This document shows, one piece after another, positions 1-13,459 of a DNA stretch of 13,529 nucleotides. Source of the DNA: a virus; UHGV virus genome UHGV-0997613. One strand, written 5' to 3'. Within the stretch, counting starts at the first letter, position 1; every line of letters starts with the position of its first letter. The notes under the pieces are model-generated. The model had not been told where the DNA came from and did no database searches. It saw nothing but the letters and a program-made list of their open reading frames with translations. A program made the translations under genes and the position numbers.

Positions 1-53
1 GTGAGTATCTGCATATGATGTCTGACGCTGGCATTCGCATCAAAGGAGAGTGA
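1..53 (+). CDS. 3' end of an upstream early-left gene (partial; reads ...EYLHMMSDAGIRIKGE*)
   Basis: Frame open from the window edge to TGA at 51-53. Its last 26 nt, including an AAGGAG Shine-Dalgarno and the stop, are repeated exactly at 522-547. Confidence 0.35.
   Translation, partial: EYLHMMSDAGIRIKGE
28..53 (+). repeat. 26-bp direct repeat, copy 1 (CTGGCATTCGCATCAAAGGAGAGTGA)
   Basis: Exact match to 522-547. It encodes a GIRIKGE* C-terminus plus the ribosome-binding site for the next gene. Confidence 0.8.
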
Positions 54-2765: not shown

Positions 2766-2974
2766 CACTTCAGGAGTGGAACGCTCGCCAGCGACGCCCA
2801 AGAAGCCTTGAAACAGTTCGTCGATGGGTGCGCGAATGCAGGATATTCCCTCCTCCGGTTAAGGATGGAAGAGAGTATCTGTTCCACGAATCAGCGGTAA
2901 AGGTTGACTTAAATCGACCAGTAACAGGTGGCCTTTTGAAGAGGATCAGAAATGGGAAGAAGGCGAAGTCATGA
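2756..2974 (+). CDS. xis: Excisionase Xis (lambda/HK022 type)
   Basis: 72-aa protein MYLTLQEWNARQRRPRSLETVRRWVRECRIFPPPVKDGREYLFHESAVKVDLNRPVTGGLLKRIRNGKKAKS, matching my recollection of lambda Xis. It overlaps the int start by 23 nt, as in lambda. Confidence 0.9.
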   Translation: MYLTLQEWNARQRRPRSLETVRRWVRECRIFPPPVKDGREYLFHESAVKVDLNRPVTGGLLKRIRNGKKAKS

Positions 2975-4025
2975 GCGCCGGGATTTACCCCCTAACCTTT
3001 ATATAAGAAACAATGGATATTACTGCTACAGGGACCCAAGGACGGGTAAAGAGTTTGGATTAGGCCGAGACAGGAGGATAGCAATCACTGAAGCAATACA
3101 GGCCAATATTGAGTTACTCTCAAACAGCGGACGCAAATCACTGATAGACAGAATTAAAGGCGGTGACGCAATCACTCTTCATGTGTGGCTTGACCGATAT
3201 GAAAGAATCCTCACCGAAAGGGGGATCAGGCCGAAAACTCTACTCGACTACGCCAGCAAAATCAGGGCAATCCGAAGAAAATTGCCGGACAAACCGCTCA
3301 CTGACATATCAACGAAAGATGTGGCAGCAATGCTAAACACCTACGTAGCGGAAGGTAAAGCAGCTTCCGCAAAATTAATCAGGTCAACCCTTGTTGACGT
3401 TTTTCGTGAAGCAATAGCCGAGGGGCATGTGGCAACGAATCCGGTAACAGCAACCCGTACAGCAAAGTCAGAAGTAAGGCGCTCAAGGCTGACAGCTAAT
3501 GAGTATGTCGAGATTTACCATGCAGCCGAACCTCTCCCTATCTGGCTAAGGCTGGCGATGGATTTGGCCGTCGTTACAGGGCAGAGAGTCGGCGATTTGT
3601 GCAGAATGAAATGGTCAGACATAAACGACAACCATCTTCACATTGAACAGAGTAAAACAGGGGCTAAACTCGCCATTCCGCTAACGCTAACGATTGACGC
3701 GCTCAATATCTCATTGGCTGATACACTACAGAAATGCAGGGAGGCCAGCAGCAGTGAAACTATAATCGCATCAAAGCATCACGATCCGCTTTCCCCGAAA
3801 ACAGTATCAAAGTATTTTACAAAGGCGAGAAATGCATCTGGACTCTCATTTGATGGAAACCCGCCAACATTCCATGAACTGCGTAGCCTGTCAGCGAGGC
3901 TATACCGGAACCAGATTGGCGATAAGTTTGCTCAACGTCTTCTCGGGCATAAATCAGATTCAATGGCGGCGCGGTATAGGGACAGCCGTGGACGGGAATG
4001 GGACAAAATTGAAATCGACAAATGA
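2952..4025 (+). CDS. int: Tyrosine integrase, lambda family with HK022-type core specificity
   Basis: 357 aa, collinear with lambda Int (MGRRRSHERRDLPPNLYIRNNGYYCYRDPRTGKEFGLGRDRRIAITEAIQANIEL..., ends REWDKIEIDK). The catalytic region includes HELRSLSARLY and LLGHKSD. Residues at the lambda/HK022 specificity positions read P-K...K and R (PLSPKTVSKYF; ARLYRNQ), which is HK022-like from memory. Confidence 0.95.
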   Translation: MGRRRSHERRDLPPNLYIRNNGYYCYRDPRTGKEFGLGRDRRIAITEAIQANIELLSNSGRKSLIDRIKGGDAITLHVWLDRYERILTERGIRPKTLLDYASKIRAIRRKLPDKPLTDISTKDVAAMLNTYVAEGKAASAKLIRSTLVDVFREAIAEGHVATNPVTATRTAKSEVRRSRLTANEYVEIYHAAEPLPIWLRLAMDLAVVTGQRVGDLCRMKWSDINDNHLHIEQSKTGAKLAIPLTLTIDALNISLADTLQKCREASSSETIIASKHHDPLSPKTVSKYFTKARNASGLSFDGNPPTFHELRSLSARLYRNQIGDKFAQRLLGHKSDSMAARYRDSRGREWDKIEIDK

Positions 4026-4616: not shown

Positions 4617-6767
4617 TTACGGCGCACTGGATAAAATAGACTTCGTCTTCGTAACAATAACATCTACAAAATCACCTGCAGATATAGCTGATGGTACTGT
4701 ATCTGCAAGAGTAATCTTTCCTGAAGAGATGCTTTGCACATCCAATAATTTATTTTCAATCCCATCCGTATATACCAATTTGATATCACTGAATGGAGGG
4801 TAATAAGTAATGGCCCCTTGGTATACATATATTTCACTGCCTGAAATTGATTTCACTACATACCTTCCCCTTACAAGATTAATTTTGAGTTCAGATAAAT
4901 CTGTTTTATAACAGGTAATTCCTGAACCAATGTTAGCAATACTAATATCAGTATCACTATGATAAGTAATTGCTTTACCTTGCTTTAAAGTAAAAGTATT
5001 TTTACTTTTCCTTGGTAAGGATGTGCTATTTTTGTAATATCTACCAGTTAAGCATAGCCATGAAAATGCAGTATTCACTACATTACCACCAGAATACACA
5101 GCTAAACGAATTGCACTAACTGGAACTCCTTCATTATTAATCCTGATCTTAATGGAAGAAATATTAGTAGCAGTTCCATATCTATGGTTAGCAGAATCCC
5201 ATTGCATCGAAGAAGTTATGGCTTCTGTTTGTGAGGTTATGACATTCCCGTCTCCATCTAATGCATACAGGTAAATGCGAAACGATGCCGTATCTGCTGA
5301 GAATGTAAACATATCACCATTTCTTACTGGTATATCTCCCGATTCCCATAAAAGCCCAAAATCCCTCATAAAAGCAAACTTAGAAGAAACCAGGTGACGG
5401 ATATTATATAAACCATCTACATCTGTTTGATATGCTAATACACCAACTTCTCCATTGTTAGCACTGGATATAAATGGGGTGTTAGCATTTAAAGAAAACA
5501 ATGTTACTTCATCGGATATATTTTCCTGAATATGAAATACTGCATTCCCCTTGCCATTATCAGTTACCTCGACATAAGTGTAAGGTGATGGATTGTATGG
5601 CTCATTTGTATACGCAGGAGATGAAAGCCATGTAGCTTCAATTGAGTTATTCCACGTATATTCACCAAAGTTAATTATCAACTGTTGGTTAGTTGGGGAT
5701 GATGGATATCGTTCAAAACGAAACCCGTAGAAGTAATTGTTATCACCTCTTTGAATATCAATTTTACCTGCCCCCTCCATAGTTCCACCATAAAACTTAT
5801 TGTGGTTATGATGATATGGATTATCAGCGAAAATGATATTATTCGTACGATTCAGATAAAAATAGTTTTCATTTATCCATCCTTTCTCAACTCCAAGAAA
5901 ATGAATTGTATCGACCTTTTTCAGGTTAAAGGTTGAGTATGCTATTGAATAATCCGTCGATGCCACCGAAGCATTATAATTTGCATATAACTGTAAGTAG
6001 TCGCAACGCTCAATGTTTATATGCTGCCCTTTTGCCCCGATAATACGAATATCCGGTGTCGTTTCAGATGAAATACCAGAATTTCTGATAATCGTTCCGA
6101 AGTTTTGTCTTGGGTTGTTAGGGTTTGATGCATTCCCGCCAAGCAATACCCCTATTCCTGAGTGGGATATGGTAAAAACAGCATTGGTCATTTCGAGGCT
6201 GACATTACGAAGATTTAATGTCTCCGTAATAATAAAATTACCTTCCGCTCGTAATGTTCTGGATGATTCTCGTGCATATTCTGCAGCCAGGATCAATGCA
6301 GATGTATCATCTGTTATACCATCTCCTTTTGCCCCCCACCCTCTTACATCACAATCGTCCCTCCACCGAGATATCTGCAATTCAGGGTATTTTTTAGCTC
6401 CATCCTGGTCTTCTAATTGCTGCCGTAGTTGATCAGGGTCATACTTCAGCACATTAGGAAAATAGAACTGCTGCACACCATACGCATCGTATACAGCCAT
6501 CGAATGGCCTTGCACAGTTACGAATTTGGCAATCTGTCCATTATATACAGGGTAACCAGCAGCGTTAATGATGATTGGTTGCGATACAGGAACGTGAGAG
6601 CCGTCTTCGTTCTCCACATAAACCTGCACTTGATTCTGTGGGAGCGTGGGATCGGAATCTATCTTACCAATGAATATCTTGCCATTGCTTGCTGCCTGGA
6701 ATTTTCTGGCTAACGTAAATAGTTGACTTGGCATTGAAATTATAACATTTGGCACAATATTTGACAT
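4617..6767 (-). CDS. Tailspike protein: P22-type head-binding N-terminal domain fused to a right-handed beta-helix receptor-binding domain (pectate-lyase-like)
   Basis: 716 aa. The first ~115 residues (SMPSQLFT...[72 protein letters not shown]...NVLKYDPDQ) match the P22 gp9 head-binding domain pattern. The remainder begins [16 protein letters not shown], typical of pectate-lyase-3-like beta-helix domains, and is markedly AT-rich. Confidence 0.9.
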
Positions 6768-7392: not shown

Positions 7393-8322
7393 TCAGTAGT
7401 TATGTACTGAAGGAGGTAATTCTTTATTCTTAAGTCTTATCCATGCAGAAAGATTCGTTGGTCCGTCTGGCTCATTGATATCAACATCTCGTGTGTGATT
7501 AATTAAAACATCTCTCGCCATTCCGATAACATACGAGAACTCATGACCGTAGTCGTAGCATCTGCCGGAATAGTTCGATTGAATTTGTTTTAGCGCCGGA
7601 TACAGTTCGCGGAATAATGCCTGTGAGCGGTTGGCATAATCCCATAACCATACAAGGCTGTTTGCTTCTTTTGCAGAAAGCTCGTTGGTTTTCTTCTCTT
7701 GTTTGCCAATGAACTCACCTTCAAGTGGAACTCGAGCTGCAAGTGACAGTGCTTCTGTAAACTGCTCCTCACTGATTTCTTTGTACGAACATCCAAAATG
7801 GGATTTCAGTGACGACCACATGGTAATCATTGCCTTCGCCTGTTTTTCTTTTGGCAGAGACTGACCGCGACTCATGACGAGTTGTTTAATGGCTTCCTGC
7901 TGTTCAGTGGTGATTTTACCCGGCAACGCTTTTTTAGCTTTGCGTGGGTTAACTACATGGCCTTTAGTCCAGTACTCGTAGAGTACATCGTCACACTCTT
8001 CCTGATACTGGATTACCTTGTCGCGGATTTCAGGGCGGACTTTGTTAGGGCTGATGGTTTGCAGCCAACCTGCAAGTTTGCGTAAAGCAAGACAGATAAC
8101 CAGACGACGCTGAGTATCGCCGGGGAGCTGAATCATCATTTCGATGATGCAGGTCTTAAATCTCTCCATCAACTTGCGGTGTTGAGACTGCCAAGTCATG
8201 CCCATTCCCTCAACGATAGGTTTCATTGGGGTGTACGGTTCGCCGTTGTGATTGACAACATAAAGCTCTGCGCCGTGGAATGGCACATTGATAGTAGATA
8301 CTGCTGTTGCTATACTTTTCAT
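7393..8322 (-). CDS. ant: Antirepressor Ant (P22 immI type)
   Basis: Large ORF in the P22 immI position after arc. ATG at 8322 ([30 protein letters not shown]...) has AGGAA 8 nt upstream. The ORF track extends to a GTG at 8388, which overlaps the stop of the 73-codon ORF and is a possible alternative start. Confidence 0.85.
8288..8316 (+). promoter_or_regulatory. Psar-like promoter inside the 5' end of ant, antisense orientation
   Basis: TTGATA (8288-8293), 17-bp spacer, TATACT (8311-8316). The predicted start near 8323 points across the ant ribosome-binding site. Confidence 0.5.
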
Positions 8323-8395
8323 GTCAATATTTCCTAAGACGATTTGTTGATACCGAAGCCCTGACTGTTCCAGCAGTTGGGGCTTCACTGTTTTT
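8323..8395 (+). ncRNA. sar: sar-like small antisense RNA (about 70 nt) complementary to the ant translation-initiation region
   Basis: The Psar-like promoter is followed about 32 nt later by an intrinsic terminator: stem GAAGCCCT (8355-8362) with GGGGCTTC (8379-8386), then ACTGTTTTTGT. The length and position agree with what is described for P22 sar RNA. Confidence 0.5.
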
Positions 8396-8606
8396 GTAAG
8401 TCACTGTAGTTATAAAGCCACTGACCACTCATTCTTGCTTTGATTGACTCTACTGAATCACGGCAAGGAATGATTCCACCTGACATCATTCTGATCTCCG
8501 TAAATTCACCGCTCCTTATCGACTCAATGCCATTAACGTTAACTAAAGATTTACCTCTACCAAGTGCATTCTCATAGCCAATCTCATCAACCTCGATAAA
8601 CTTCAT
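8385..8606 (-). CDS. Hypothetical 73-aa protein between arc and ant, translationally coupled to arc
   Basis: ATG overlaps the arc stop (ATGA), with GAGGGG 8 nt upstream. Its stop overlaps the GTG at 8388. No recognisable family. It sits where I recall P22 having only a short arc-ant intercistronic region. Confidence 0.4.
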
Positions 8607-8761
8607 ACCGTTATCCCCTCTCTCTTCAGGCTGTCCAGCACCCGCTTGTAAATCTCAGAGTTAACAGATCGCCCGTTCTCTTCAGCTACCTTGCGCACCA
8701 AATCCAATACTTCTTTAGGCCACCGCAAATTGAACTGCGGCATTTTGCTCATTCCTTTCAT
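8603..8761 (-). CDS. arc: Arc repressor (ribbon-helix-helix)
   Basis: [52 protein letters not shown] closely matches my recollection of P22 Arc. The start is the internal ATG at 8761, not the 73-aa ORF-track start at 8824. Confidence 0.9.
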   Translation of the reverse strand: MKGMSKMPQFNLRWPKEVLDLVRKVAEENGRSVNSEIYKRVLDSLKREGITV

Positions 8762-8777
8762 GTTCACCTCACAATAT

Positions 8778-8794
8778 AGGTCCACCGTGGACCT
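8778..8794. promoter_or_regulatory. Mnt operator (17-bp palindrome AGGTCCACCGTGGACCT; extended 21-bp palindrome 8776-8796)
   Basis: Read on the ant-sense strand this is AGGTCCACGGTGGACCT, identical to my recollection of the P22 Omnt. It lies just downstream of the Pant -10. Confidence 0.8.
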
Positions 8795-8800
8795 ATTGAG

Positions 8801-8829
8801 AATATAGTAGAGTGCTTCTATCATGTCAA
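8801..8829 (-). promoter_or_regulatory. Pant promoter with the Arc operator in its spacer
   Basis: On the minus strand: TTGACA (8829-8824), 17-bp spacer, TATATT (8806-8801). The 21-bp Arc operator ATAGTAGAGTGCTTCTATCAT occupies 8804-8824, matching the known P22 sequence as remembered. Confidence 0.75.
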
Positions 8830-8851: not shown

Positions 8852-9100
8852 ATGGCTAGAGATGATCCGCACTTTAACTTCCGTATGCCTTTGGAAGTAA
8901 GAGAAAAATTGAAATTAAGAGCCGAGGCTAACGGAAGGTCAATGAACTCTGAGTTATTACAAATCGTTCAGGATGCTCTCTCCAAACCATCACCTGTAAG
9001 CGGGTATCGTGATGAAGAAGAGAGACTGGCCTCATTAATCTCGGAACGAGTAAAAGAAGTTGCGGCTGAAATTCTAAGGAAAGAAAAAACCCGCGATTAA
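8852..9100 (+). CDS. mnt: Mnt repressor (ribbon-helix-helix, maintenance of lysogeny)
   Basis: MARDDPHFNFRMPLEVREKLKLRAEANGRSMNSELLQIVQDALSKPSPVSGY... matches P22 Mnt as remembered. GGAG lies 7 nt upstream of the ATG. It is divergent from arc-ant, as in P22. Confidence 0.9.
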   Translation: MARDDPHFNFRMPLEVREKLKLRAEANGRSMNSELLQIVQDALSKPSPVSGYRDEEERLASLISERVKEVAAEILRKEKTRD

Positions 9101-9107
9101 GCGGGTT
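9088..9107. terminator. Bidirectional terminator shared by convergent mnt and the toxin operon
   Basis: AACCCGC-GATTAA-GCGGGTT stem flanked by an A6 tract on one side. This gives TTTTTTCTTT on the minus strand and TTT on the + strand. The mnt stop codon lies in the loop and the toxin gene stop abuts the stem. Confidence 0.6.
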
Positions 9108-9556
9108 TAGTCAAACATAGTGTTTCTAAAGTCTCTCGCATACCCTGCTAACACTCTCATTCTATTATGATTGTTAGCAGACATGTGAGCTACAGGGTGA
9201 AAAAGAGCAATCAATGAATACCTGTTCTCATCAAAAAGATTTTGTGCATAAACGAGAGCGGTATTGGATGTTTTATGCCACTGCAACTTTTGCGGTGTGC
9301 TGATATCTGTGCCATTTTTTATTGGCTCAAATTTATTTTCACCAATTGCTAAATGAAGGTGCATAAGACCTGCATCTTCAATATCAGGAGGCCGATGATA
9401 AGAGGTGTCTCTGCCAAAATAGCTGGGCAACGTTCCCGTAGACTTGTAGATGATAAAATCATCTACAAGTGTTTGTTTTAAATCAGGAAACTCAACAAAA
9501 ACCGGGGAGAAAAAATAGTCAAAACTATCCTGATTATATTCCACGGTTACTTGCAT
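9107..9556 (-). CDS. YafO-family toxin homologue (putative ribosome-dependent mRNA interferase)
   Basis: 149 aa. Segments FIIYKSTGTLPSYFGRD, MHLHLAIGENKFEP and LVYAQNLFDENRYSLIALFHPVAHMSANNHNRMRVLAGYARDFR align with E. coli YafO (FISYKRDGVLPDIFGRD; HIHLANENNPFP; LVYCQGAFDEQAWLLIAILKPEPHKLARDNNQMHKIGKMAEAFR) as I remember it. GAGGT lies 5 nt upstream of the ATG and overlaps the upstream gene's TGA. Confidence 0.65.
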   Translation of the reverse strand: MQVTVEYNQDSFDYFFSPVFVEFPDLKQTLVDDFIIYKSTGTLPSYFGRDTSYHRPPDIEDAGLMHLHLAIGENKFEPIKNGTDISTPQKLQWHKTSNTALVYAQNLFDENRYSLIALFHPVAHMSANNHNRMRVLAGYARDFRNTMFD

Positions 9557-9564
9557 GTTTTACC

Positions 9565-10131
9565 TCAGTGGAAGTTACCAGAGTGAAACACACGAGTCCC
9601 GTGCTCAGCAAGCGCACGCAAACCAGCCATATCTACGGAACTATCAAAAACAACCGGAACACATGAGCGTTGTTTAATAAGACTATTCAGGTTAGTTACG
9701 GCAGATCTAGCATCAGCAACAACGATATAGATATCTCTTGCGATCTCTTTAAAATCAGCAGAAGCTTCTTTGAATACCGATTTCATTGCCCCTTCAAGTC
9801 CTCTCAATTGATGCTCTATCAATCGAGACTTTTCTGGTTCAATGATAGACAACACATTGTCTACATTCTCATCGGTAGCGTTTGCAAGAACACGATAAGC
9901 GTATTTCAGCATTCGAGACAATTCTTTAATCGAAGACACCGCCTCATGAAGCTCATCATTAGCCCGTTCACTGCTGAATGAGGATTGATGGTAAGCGTGC
10001 TGAACGTTATCAGTAACAACCACCTCACAACTGAACGCAGAAGCTTGCTGTAATAGCAAACCTATTGCGACTCCAGCTTTGGCAGCGTTCAAGCTAAACA
10101 TTTCATCAATCCCATTAGTCTCATTGCTCAT
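9565..10131 (-). CDS. Hypothetical 188-aa protein, first gene of the toxin operon (candidate non-canonical antitoxin or partner)
   Basis: ATG at 10131 (MSNETNGIDEMF...) has AAGGAGG 5 nt upstream; the ORF-track start at 10161 lacks a Shine-Dalgarno. Predicted mostly helical. No similarity to YafN, RelB or Phd-type antitoxins that I can see. Confidence 0.6.
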   Translation of the reverse strand: MSNETNGIDEMFSLNAAKAGVAIGLLLQQASAFSCEVVVTDNVQHAYHQSSFSSERANDELHEAVSSIKELSRMLKYAYRVLANATDENVDNVLSIIEPEKSRLIEHQLRGLEGAMKSVFKEASADFKEIARDIYIVVADARSAVTNLNSLIKQRSCVPVVFDSSVDMAGLRALAEHGTRVFHSGNFH

Positions 10132-10198
10132 ACAAACCTCCTTCTTATCGGAGATTATCAATAGCTATGTATCCATTGAATACACGCTATGCGCAGTA

Positions 10199-10227
10199 AT
10201 TCTACGTCACGTGATATCATTATGCAA
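10199..10227 (-). promoter_or_regulatory. Candidate promoter of the toxin operon with a palindrome in the spacer
   Basis: On the minus strand: TTGCAT (10227-10222), 17-bp spacer, TAGAAT (10204-10199). The spacer contains the 8-bp palindrome TCACGTGA (10207-10214) overlapping GATATC. Confidence 0.35.
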
Positions 10228-10310
10228 CCACCGTTCTATCACCGACTAACTTTACTCCCACTCCTATACATCATCTGGTATCCTGCTCAAAACTAAGGAG
10301 TGGCTACTCA

Positions 10311-10970: not shown

Positions 10971-12884
10971 TTAGCGATCAGTTGCATCATTGGCAAGTAT
11001 TGGTCTGATGGCATTTGCGGCGTTATTCAGCGCTCTTTCATAAGCTGGCGTTCCAGCTTTAGTGTTTGCCAGACGTAAGAGCGCATTCCTAGCCATAGGG
11101 CTTTCATAAACCCTCGACATAAGGCCAATCCCTGTTTCCCCAGCCAATAGCGCGCCTCCGGTTTTTAGGTTACCAATAACCCTTACCAAAGGCGCGAGTG
11201 TCATGCCAGTCTTCGTCACAACATTAGCCTCAGATGCTCTTTTGGTAGCATCGAGAATAGATAACATCCCCTCTATCTCTTTTCCGTTCTTCCCACCAAA
11301 TACAGTTTTAAACACCTGACCATTTGCTTGTTTTTGCAGCTTGCCAAGCTCGGTCATCATTTTCTGAGGGCTGTCACCTACCTTGTCAGCTATTTTGCTG
11401 ATATATGCCGCCCTTAGCATGTCTTTACCTTTTTGATCGAGTTTCCCGTACAATCGAGCTATATCTGACCCATATTGTCCATACACAATGGTATTTACAG
11501 CCTCGGGAGTTAAATCTCCTTTGTTTAGAACGTTTTTAAGGCGCGTTTGAGTTACATGTGTTGCCATTTTTGCATAATCAGCTTTTCCCGCTCTCCATGC
11601 TGAAGCATCTTTTGGGCTAAGTCCTTTCGCTATAGATTTACTAAGGCTATTGGTTAGCGAGTTATAGACCCTGTCGACCATTGTTTGCGACATTGATGGC
11701 AGAACTGTACGATCGCCTTTTACGTCAATGCGGAACTGAGTTCTCAGCTTATCAAGTAACTCAAAGGCATCATCTCCATTTGTTATCTCCTGAATGGCAT
11801 TCTTATAATCATTAAGCGCAGAAATGGTCTGGGTGTCAGAAACACCTTTAAGTTTCCCAAGTTCGTTTACTGCTCCGTCGATAGCTCTTATGGCGCCACT
11901 TGTATCAACTGGCTTTCCAACCATTCTTCCTGACAGGCTGTTTAGTTTTGACTTGGCTAACGATTTTTCCCTTGCAACGCCTGACTTTAGACTATCAACG
12001 ACTACAGATGGATCGTAGTCGCCGTATTTTTCGGTGAAGCGATTAACAAGCTTGGTTCTGGCATCCTGCTGTGCGGCTCTCATTGGTCCAGTACCAGCTA
12101 TGACTCCTTCTGAGTAACCCTGCAGTTGATTGCCAAGTTTTGTTTTTGGAGGAACTACATCCGATGTCATAACTGGTACATCTGCCGCAGCGGCACGCTT
12201 GAGCAATTGCTGATCTGCTGGTGATATTTCGCCACGAACAGCAGTAATTCCACGCCCTATTCCCTTTGCTGCTGCGGAAAGAACCCCCTGAGCGGCAAGG
12301 TTAACTCCGGCATTTTTAGCTGCATTTTGTGCGAAATCGCCTTTCTGATTTGCAGCATCAGCAAGAGAACCTGCAATCATGTTTCCTGCGGAACCGATAT
12401 CTCCAGCGAGCTTTGCTGTCGCTCCAGCAGCTTTTGCCGCTGTGCCAATTGGCAGGAGATACCCACCAATTGTTTCACCGGCTTGCGCGTAAGGGTCTGT
12501 CGGTCGCTCGACAGGGCGATAAACATCATCCAAAACCTTGGGGCCACCAAGCCCCTGGCTGATTGCATTAATCAGACTTGCGCCACCCTGCAATACGTCA
12601 AATGGTATGTTTACCAGACCACGACCAGCCTGTTCTGCAATTTGCCCTGCACTTTGACCACCAGTGAGCCAATCGCCAGCTTGTTGCATCAATGATGGTT
12701 CTTCTTTCTGCTGCTGAGGCGGAGGGTATGCTGCATAAAACTGATCTCTTGCTTCAGCCCATTTGTCACCAGCCTTAGGGGCAACAACCTCATCAAAATA
12801 TTGCGCTTGAGCCTGTGCTTTCTGTTCTTCAGTTAACGCCTGATACTGTGGAGAAGCGATAACATCTTTCCATGCTTTAGCCAT
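10971..12884 (-). CDS. Internal virion / DNA-ejection protein (P22 gp16 position)
   Basis: 637 aa, Ala/Gly/Gln-rich, last gene of the structural block before the accessory island, as gp16 is in P22. The start overlaps the upstream stop (TAATG). Assigned by position and composition, not by a remembered sequence. Confidence 0.55.
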   Translation of the reverse strand: MAKAWKDVIASPQYQALTEEQKAQAQAQYFDEVVAPKAGDKWAEARDQFYAAYPPPQQQKEEPSLMQQAGDWLTGGQSAGQIAEQAGRGLVNIPFDVLQGGASLINAISQGLGGPKVLDDVYRPVERPTDPYAQAGETIGGYLLPIGTAAKAAGATAKLAGDIGSAGNMIAGSLADAANQKGDFAQNAAKNAGVNLAAQGVLSAAAKGIGRGITAVRGEISPADQQLLKRAAAADVPVMTSDVVPPKTKLGNQLQGYSEGVIAGTGPMRAAQQDARTKLVNRFTEKYGDYDPSVVVDSLKSGVAREKSLAKSKLNSLSGRMVGKPVDTSGAIRAIDGAVNELGKLKGVSDTQTISALNDYKNAIQEITNGDDAFELLDKLRTQFRIDVKGDRTVLPSMSQTMVDRVYNSLTNSLSKSIAKGLSPKDASAWRAGKADYAKMATHVTQTRLKNVLNKGDLTPEAVNTIVYGQYGSDIARLYGKLDQKGKDMLRAAYISKIADKVGDSPQKMMTELGKLQKQANGQVFKTVFGGKNGKEIEGMLSILDATKRASEANVVTKTGMTLAPLVRVIGNLKTGGALLAGETGIGLMSRVYESPMARNALLRLANTKAGTPAYERALNNAANAIRPILANDATDR

Positions 12885-13459
12885 TAATCACCCCATAAAG
12901 ACGAGAAACCGGACTTATTGCTGTCGCTTCCTGATTTTCGCTCACTAACATATGTGTCATAACCTGATGAACTGTATCCCATTGATTCAGCCTCCCTTGC
13001 TGCAACCTTTTGAAATACAGAATATTGAGATCGTATTTCAGATAACTGTTTTCTGACGACCTCTTCAGGCTGTGTTATATCGAGTTTCGCGATCAGGTTT
13101 TCCAGTTTTTGGCCTTCAGCATTGGAGAGGCTACCCATACCTCGCATAGTCTGCACGTTCTGGACAAACGCACCCGACTTTAATTCTTCTATCGCATTAC
13201 GGTTTGCAAGCCCTTCAGCACTTGTGAAGCCATCTATATTTCTTCCTTCGAAGCGACCGATACCTTCAAGCTCCTTCTTACCAAGCAAAGAATCTATTTT
13301 CTCTATCCCTCGCTCACCAGTAATCAACGCATTGTTGTAATTATTGTTGCCATCAAGCCATCTCTTAGCCTGAGACATTCTGGCTGACGTTGCAGCTTTA
13401 CCGGTTAGAGGATCAATTCCCGTCGCTGCTATCTGTGAGTTAAGAGACAAAACATCCAT
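12884..13459 (-). CDS. Putative ejection protein, 191 aa (gp7/gp20 position)
   Basis: Translationally coupled to the downstream gene. An in-frame stop at 13484-13486 bounds the ORF, so it is not a truncated larger gene in this frame. Confidence 0.45.
   Translation of the reverse strand: MDVLSLNSQIAATGIDPLTGKAATSARMSQAKRWLDGNNNYNNALITGERGIEKIDSLLGKKELEGIGRFEGRNIDGFTSAEGLANRNAIEELKSGAFVQNVQTMRGMGSLSNAEGQKLENLIAKLDITQPEEVVRKQLSEIRSQYSVFQKVAAREAESMGYSSSGYDTYVSERKSGSDSNKSGFSSLWGD

Follow-up and report, generated by a model that had tools for sequence, protein, structure and literature searches.

Does a YafO-type toxin carried by a phage have an antitoxin of its own, and what kind of protein would this be? 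The question is raised by a two-gene cassette in UHGV virus genome UHGV-0997613, of which a stretch of 13,529 nucleotides (nt) was analyzed as a whole (the window; all coordinates count from its first letter). The cassette encodes a YafO-family toxin of 149 amino acids (aa) and, immediately upstream, a protein of 188 aa, here called the partner. An earlier reading of the same DNA without database searches (the sequence-only reading) had placed both open reading frames (ORFs) correctly and had proposed a non-canonical toxin-antitoxin pair. The present analysis favors a type II-like toxin-antitoxin moron, in which the partner represents a new antitoxin family without DNA-binding domain and is cognate to the YafO toxin, with a probability of about 0.68. 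In the cassette, a toxin of known family is combined with a partner whose family is new and unannotated.

The toxin matched the Pfam family YafO_toxin (PF13957) with 78.9 bits (E=3.4e-22; gathering score 25) over model positions 3-101 of 101. Its alignment with YafO of Escherichia coli K-12 showed 38% identity over 120 residues (pairwise E=7e-20), which is far above chance, and the family named in the sequence-only reading is thereby confirmed. The identical gene in RefSeq is named 'type II toxin-antitoxin system YafO family toxin'. With the NCBIfam YafO model NF007377 the protein scored 79 bits against an equivalog cut-off of 153, so it is a member of the family and not an ortholog or equivalog of K-12 YafO. 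Among 18 diverse toxins including K-12 YafO, the residues D33, F34, Y37, F47, G48, Y53, H66, Q92, L101, Y103, P121, H124 and M133 are invariant, and H68, D50 and E110 are conserved in at least 90%. Toxins of the phage type possess an N-terminal extension of about 14 aa which is absent from K-12 YafO. The AlphaFold2 model was of medium confidence (predicted local distance difference test, pLDDT, 67; predicted template modelling score, pTM, 0.61). Its top Foldseek neighbours in PDB were all RelE-superfamily proteins, namely YoeB, HP0894, YafQ, HigB and RelE, with TM(target) of 0.54-0.63 and non-significant E values of at least 0.15. By its family membership the protein is a predicted YafO-type RNA-cleaving toxin, which would inhibit growth through cleavage of mRNA.

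The partner corresponds to phrog_8416, a family of unknown function in PHROGs. No family match was obtained for it in Pfam, NCBIfam or PADLOC, and 27 members of its family gave no Pfam match at E<=0.01. It has no similarity to YafN (BLASTP E=36, hhalign probability 0.4%). A match to the ZorA tail in PADLOC (14 bits, E=0.0039) was rejected as coiled-coil noise, and the same was concluded of Pfam matches at E>0.04, among them DUF745 and COPI_C, which reflect coiled coils or low-score noise. The AlphaFold2 model is all-helical (pLDDT 73, pTM 0.65) and had no significant Foldseek neighbour in PDB or BFVD, in agreement with the earlier description of a helical protein without evident antitoxin fold. 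The most conserved motifs are G24-L25-L26-x-Q28, L109-R110-G-L-E113, A141-R142, Q154 and the C-terminal tail, which follows the pattern F-x-S164-x-[ID]-x3-L171-x2-L174-A-x-H-G-T and ends with F-H. The start codon is the ATG at 10131, preceded at 5 nt by a perfect AAGGAGG, and the open frame continues upstream to a TTG at 10161. An internal start at the nearly invariant Met11 was not adopted; a strong Shine-Dalgarno sequence stands before Met1 in all clade members.

A word-indexed search with the partner recovered 6 clusters. A full profile search of 1.84 billion clustered protein representatives yielded 23 family members, all of about 165-190 aa, and a profile search with 27 members gave 26 clusters; these came from E. 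coli, Salmonella and Pseudomonas and, where they had a name at all, were called 'hypothetical protein'. The family is small and gammaproteobacterial. Genomic contexts were taken from nine diverged toxins or partners, four phage records (HK639, the Pseudomonas phages YMC11/02/R656 and vB_PaeS-D14L, and E. coli phage PhiR40_1), 28 IMG/VR loci and one Klebsiella IncFIB plasmid. A scan with hidden Markov models located a YafO ORF directly 3' of the partner gene in all 46 phage and prophage loci with a partner gene, and the plasmid locus has the same arrangement, making 47 of 47. At the yafO locus of K-12 such a partner gene is absent. No third conserved gene was present in any context looked up (diverged loci, phage records and plasmid). 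Of 35 distinct pairs, 28 have a gap of exactly 8 nt between partner stop and toxin start.

The two proteins also diverged together. Pairwise identities of partner and toxin were correlated with r=0.90 over 32 distinct pairs, shared phylogeny not being corrected for. Conservation was lower for the partner than for the toxin in 97.8% of the comparisons, and such faster change is the usual pattern of an antitoxin relative to its toxin. Between UHGV-0997613 and a related locus (L030), the non-synonymous divergence (dN) of the partner was three times that of the toxin. The ratio of dN to synonymous divergence (dS) was about 0.11 for the partner where it could be calculated, with dS near saturation. 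Both ORFs are full length in relatives from 22% to 99% identity, and both genes are under purifying selection. Among 5,426 complete E. coli genomes, copies with at least 99% identity were present for both genes in one and the same set of 55 genomes and 58 places, and four more genomes contain a toxin gene of about 70% identity. The association of the partner with YafO only, together with the co-divergence, strongly supports a cognate two-gene module, as the sequence-only reading had suspected.

Possible disruptions were seen at two loci, and both hit the toxin gene and spare the partner. At one locus (L020, 3576-4026) the toxin frame opens about 40 nt late and the partner gene is intact. In strain SF-088 (NZ_CP012635.1, 1487075-1487523) the toxin match covers 449 of 450 nt, suggesting a deletion of 1 nt, again with an intact partner gene. 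These could be real inactivations or sequencing errors.

The signals around the two genes are those of a compact operon. On the minus strand the junction reads TGAGGTAAAACATG; the TGA of the partner overlaps the GAGG Shine-Dalgarno of the toxin gene, and 8 nt separate the stop codon from the toxin ATG, bearing out the tight coupling described before. The TGA/GAGG overlap recurs in relatives. The toxin start codon is often TTG there, which fits with less toxin than partner being made. The terminator which closes the cassette has an 8-bp stem followed by a T-run; it overlaps with the final codons of mnt as well as with the toxin stop codon. It had been described as shared with mnt; the part concerning the toxin stands, as the terminator was called on the minus strand, while on the plus strand, in the direction of mnt, the T-run is poor. 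The operon had also been credited with its own promoter. A candidate sigma-70 promoter is plausible, with a similar TTGCTC-N18-TAGAAT conserved before the partner gene in diverged relatives, but it is weaker than claimed, since it matches 8 of 12 positions and falls under the scan threshold. A perfect 8-bp palindrome, TCACGTGA (10214-10207, minus strand), lies within the 17-nt spacer and is possibly an operator for some regulator. An outside regulator is considered for it because the partner itself lacks a DNA-binding domain.

The leader is predicted to form a hairpin in which the Shine-Dalgarno of the partner (AAGGAGG, 10143-10137) pairs with an upstream CUCC element. This CUCC...GGAG pairing is retained in all five diverged relatives (5/5), and no Rfam family matches the leader. 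The relatives (L003 3290-3420, L005 3290-3419, L006 3290-3420, L007 3335-3420 and L016, which is HK639, 2790-2920) have a more elaborate leader, in which a promoter-like site is followed by a small hairpin (ACAAC/GTTGT), a GC-rich hairpin that resembles a terminator and has a T-run, and the hairpin that masks the Shine-Dalgarno. The GC-rich hairpin sits between promoter and Shine-Dalgarno and shows compensatory changes (in L006). Judged from these elements, the leader of the relatives could be an attenuator or a small RNA. In UHGV-0997613 just the promoter-like site and the Shine-Dalgarno-masking hairpin are retained.

Taken as a toxin-antitoxin module, the cassette may work as follows. Transcription would start from its own promoter TTGCAT-N17-TAGAAT, and the leader would hide the ribosome-binding site of the first gene. 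The partner would be made first and the YafO endoribonuclease then by translational coupling, with the hairpin terminator ending the transcript. The partner would neutralise the toxin, most likely through direct binding. The favored binding element is the C-terminal tail (residues 157-188; ...HGTxVFxSGxFH), possibly along with the conserved N-terminal G-L-L-x-Q helix; a tail that is conserved and yet disordered in the monomer model resembles what a toxin-binding segment should look like, to judge by the way other type II antitoxins work. Loss of the partner, for instance by degradation, sequestration or a stop to its synthesis, would release YafO, which would then cleave mRNA and arrest translation. 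In a lysogen this might serve phage exclusion or abortive infection, a role which is put forward tentatively, from context, and at somewhat less than even odds. The main alternative, stabilisation of the element that carries the cassette, is held to be less likely.

Comparison with known systems places the cassette between several of them. It shares with K-12 yafNO the toxin family PF13957, with 38% identity and conserved His, Tyr and Asp positions, and an upstream gene followed by the toxin within a few nt. K-12 YafO is a ribosome-associated mRNA interferase. The antitoxin YafN, however, is a Phd/YefM-type protein of 97 aa, while the partner is all-helical, of 188 aa and unrelated, and with no YafN or Phd/YefM similarity in the upstream protein the cassette is not of the yafNO type. 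Furthermore, yafNO lies in the chromosomal dinB-yafN-yafO-yafP operon, whereas the cassette is found on phages and plasmids with its own candidate promoter. The K-12 dinB operon is SOS-regulated. Toxin-antitoxin systems of type II in general resemble the cassette in bicistronic organization, conserved co-occurrence and co-evolution, and differ in the DNA-binding domain of the antitoxin. In paaR2-paaA2-parE2 of E. coli O157, which is linked to prophages, an antitoxin without ribbon-helix-helix (RHH), helix-turn-helix (HTH) or AbrB domain neutralises a BECR/RelE-type toxin. The cassette is similar in its putatively RelE-type toxin, in its putatively neutralising antitoxin without DNA-binding domain and in its prophage link. 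PaaA2 is small and intrinsically disordered and the third gene, PaaR2, regulates, whereas the cassette encodes a folded bundle and has no conserved third gene.

Like phd-doc, the cassette is a two-gene module of toxin-antitoxin type on temperate phages and plasmids, though the toxin and antitoxin families are different. The addiction module phd-doc belongs to P1, whose prophage is extrachromosomal, so that post-segregational killing makes obvious sense; most carriers of the cassette are integrated prophages. The sieA and sieB-type morons of P22, in the region between gene 16 and mnt, occupy the same slot, and the cassette is likewise an accessory unit, predicted to be transcribed independently, next to a SieA-like gene. 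P22 SieA, which prevents the entry of DNA, is one membrane protein on its own; the cassette has two genes, one of them for a ribonuclease-family toxin. Partner swapping is common among toxin-antitoxin systems. The toxin-antitoxin-chaperone (TAC) systems HigBAC, MqsRAC and CmdTAC also combine a toxin of the RelE superfamily, to which the toxin of the cassette putatively belongs, on a mobile element with a proposed abortive infection role, and their antitoxins have a hydrophobic extension, a feature of the partner too, that could engage the Sec-chaperone machinery (PMC9519451). They contain a SecB-like gene and a C-terminal ChAD, whereas the hydrophobic segment of the partner is N-terminal, and no PADLOC model matches the cassette; as no SecB-like third gene occurs in the contexts looked up, the cassette is not a TAC system.

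In published work, a prophage survey names 'YafO toxin' alone for two Pseudomonas phages (PMC10449497), and 'yafO and ydaS' were proposed as a toxin-antitoxin pair in a Salmonella prophage (PMC9836087). YafO toxins of phages and plasmids are currently annotated as orphans, and the gene upstream is 'hypothetical' in RefSeq, PHROGs and nearly every source checked. The sole other name encountered for the partner family is 'YafM antitoxin', given by the depositors of PhiR40_1 (PV340560.1; L018 222-761) and not traceable to any publication. Recognition of the upstream gene as a dedicated partner would give a new putative antitoxin family and would let tools that search for toxin-antitoxin and defence systems treat these modules as complete. 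In the partner, the absence of a DNA-binding domain and the unusual N-terminus suggest that regulation and triggering are unlike the textbook type II model.

These two features also stand among several points which weigh against a type II-like antitoxin. No RHH, HTH, AbrB or Phd DNA-binding domain was found in the partner by Pfam and NCBIfam, so classical autoregulation is missing, and the protein is about twice the usual size of an antitoxin. The correlation between the two proteins includes their shared phylogeny, and the candidate promoter is below threshold. PADLOC has no defence model matching either protein; for the toxin, the protein models of PADLOC-DB v2 gave zero matches. Literature searches gave no description of the YafO/partner pair or of the partner family, nor experimental work on an abortive-infection or exclusion role. 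The last point is the N-terminus of the partner: its likeness to a Sec signal peptide would be out of place in an antitoxin that simply stays in the cytosol. The sequence-only reading had missed this feature.

If the partner were exported, it could not be a simple cytosolic antitoxin. It might carry a Sec signal peptide or a signal anchor and be exported or membrane-tethered. The pair would then act as an exclusion or abortive device coupled to the membrane, and only the partner's precursor in the cytosol, or else its form bound to the membrane, would restrain YafO. The N-terminal segment is hydrophobic and non-amphipathic in nearly all members, with a hydrophobic moment of 0.1-0.2 compared to 0.5-0.7 in the bundle helices. 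A 10-aa Kyte-Doolittle window of at least 1.8 occurs in 27 of 49 partners and in 1 of 32 toxins, and small-x-small motifs follow the segment in 45 of 49 partners by heuristic assessment. Distant members have the look of textbook Sec signal peptides, with P at -5 and AxA, as in ...QPAALA|EAF and ...PAAMA|QEF. The linker after the segment is disordered in the AlphaFold2 model, and a gene for a SieA-like inner-membrane exclusion protein adjoins the cassette. In the 188-aa partner itself, however, the region ahead of the hydrophobic stretch has a net charge of -2 (E4, D9 and E10 against K18), and a net negative n-region disfavors Sec targeting. The stretch is also short, contains QQ and reaches only 1.2-1.9 (Kyte-Doolittle) in the main clade. 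G24-L25-L26-x-Q28 is strongly conserved, unlike in typical signal peptides, no canonical lipobox is present, and the close coupling of its translation to that of a cytosolic toxin points to interaction in the cytosol. A lipoprotein formed through the conserved Cys35 was rejected, positions -1 to -3 being unlike a lipobox in most members. Export or tethering is held to be unlikely. A related idea is that the partner is an antitoxin whose activity is tied to the envelope, as a Sec/SecB client or a membrane-associated protein. Neutralisation of YafO would then depend on the export or membrane state, giving an injection- or membrane-sensing abortive switch next to sieA; this is rated as quite unlikely.

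The size of the helical bundle, larger than neutralisation alone requires, and the lack of a recognisable antitoxin fold would also suit an accessory role of the partner, for example as sensor, activator or specificity factor, with the toxin restrained by leader-limited expression, an RNA or a host factor. The terminator-like and Shine-Dalgarno-sequestering hairpins in the leader of relatives agree with this. Those elements are, though, situated 5' of the partner gene without overlapping the toxin gene, and no third conserved gene is found in the contexts looked up. Gene order, coupling, the 8-nt gap, faster partner evolution and the toxin-only disruptions all fit the antitoxin-toxin pattern, making an accessory factor improbable. 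Decay is the remaining explanation, with the cassette as a degenerate or domesticated remnant whose YafO homologue is inactive and which has no toxin-antitoxin activity. The low NCBIfam score relative to the equivalog cut-off, the medium confidence of the toxin model and an isoelectric point of the toxin close to neutral would be compatible with it. Against this, the candidate catalytic residues common to K-12 YafO are invariant in the 18 diverse toxins, full-length ORFs are kept under purifying selection over the whole range of identities, and the cassette is actively exchanged among phages and plasmids, so that a remnant is scarcely credible. The type II-like module with the partner as antitoxin is the reading retained here.

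The coordinates of all features are collected in Table 1.

Table 1. Features of the window, segments of the partner protein and locations of diverged cassettes.
Feature	Position	Strand	Basis or remark
Integrase	2952-4025	+	
Tailspike	4617-6767	-	
HNH_3 ORF, 164 aa	6788-7282	+	PF13392, E=4e-15; inserted between tailspike and ant
Antirepressor Ant	7393-8388	-	P22_AR_N and P22_AR_C domains
sar antisense RNA of P22 immI	8324-8389	+	Rfam RF00262, 62.1 bits; expected for such phages
Small ORF, 73 aa	8385-8606	-	Between arc and ant
Arc	8603-8824	-	
Mnt	8852-9100	+	
Intrinsic terminator closing the cassette	9108..9087	-	Stem AAACCCGC/GCGGGTTT, then TTTCTTTCCT; terminator scan
Whole mobile cassette	~9101-10300	-	99% identical in P22-like prophages with different or diverged flanks (blastn against L001, L002, L025)
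YafO-family toxin gene, 149 aa	9107-9556	-	Pfam, NCBIfam, K-12 YafO alignment
Translational-coupling junction	9557-9570	-	cacTGAGGTAAAAC, then toxin ATG at 9556-9554
Partner gene (putative antitoxin), 188 aa	9565-10131	-	phrog_8416; always 5' of YafO gene
Leader hairpin	10135..10156	-	AAUCUCC-GAUAAGAA-GGAGGUU; RNA fold centroid, z=-2.2
Candidate sigma-70 promoter	10227-10199	-	TTGCAT (10227-10222), 17-nt spacer, TAGAAT (10204-10199)
SieA-like membrane protein, 212 aa	10311-10949	+	phrog_7745 'superinfection exclusion SieA-like', E=1.6e-20
Genes 16 and 20	10971-13459	-	
Partner, N-terminal hydrophobic segment	residues ~11-33		
Partner, helix	residues 16-38		AlphaFold2, medium confidence
Partner, disordered linker	residues 36-53		AlphaFold2
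Partner, helical bundle	residues 54-156		AlphaFold2, confident, pLDDT ~90
Partner, conserved C-terminal tail ending in FH	residues 157-188		Low confidence in AlphaFold2 monomer model; family alignment
Diverged cassette in siphovirus tail modules	L003, L005, HK639		
Diverged cassette between Q antiterminator and holin	L006		
Diverged cassette beside other arc/mnt/ant regions	L007, L010		
Diverged cassette near integrases	L011, L014, L019		
Diverged cassette near cI	L017		
Diverged cassette between IS5 copies, Klebsiella IncFIB plasmid	L048		

The window comes from an E. coli prophage of the P22-like type, of which it covers the immI and accessory region. The ORF inserted between tailspike and ant is probably a homing-type or AP2-like HNH gene. 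In the interval between arc and ant, relatives have other small ORFs (270 nt in L001 and 174 nt in L002). The SieA-like gene is divergent from the toxin/partner cassette, and it is absent from the otherwise similar prophage of strain 19SZHZ803Rt (L001).

P22-like prophages that have diverged, and that carry different genes beside the cassette, share it as a mosaic block of 99% identity. Its carriers include P22-like, lambdoid (HK639) and other siphovirus genomes, Pseudomonas phages and Klebsiella IncFIB plasmids. The sequence-only reading had assigned it to the accessory slot between mnt and gene 16; this placement is right for the window, but the cassette is not specific to that slot and occurs in tail modules, late regions, integrase-proximal positions and plasmids as well. 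Such a spread of positions is the behaviour of a moron or a toxin-antitoxin cassette. On two unrelated siphovirus-type contigs (L007 4488-6123 and L010 1343-2849) it again adjoins an immI-like arc/mnt/antirepressor region; the explanation is either joint transfer of the two or a common hotspot of insertion.

Strains of clinical importance are among the E. coli that carry the cassette, for example S88 and APEC O1 of the K1/ST95 lineage, and its 1.2 kb make it compact and directly testable for phage exclusion. In the S88 prophage (L002 6420-6956), a gene annotated 'ATP-dependent Clp protease proteolytic subunit' lies between mnt and the toxin gene and is convergent with the cassette, in a region flanked by intS and gene 16. 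This ClpP-like neighbour deserves attention, Lon or Clp proteases being the usual agents of antitoxin degradation.

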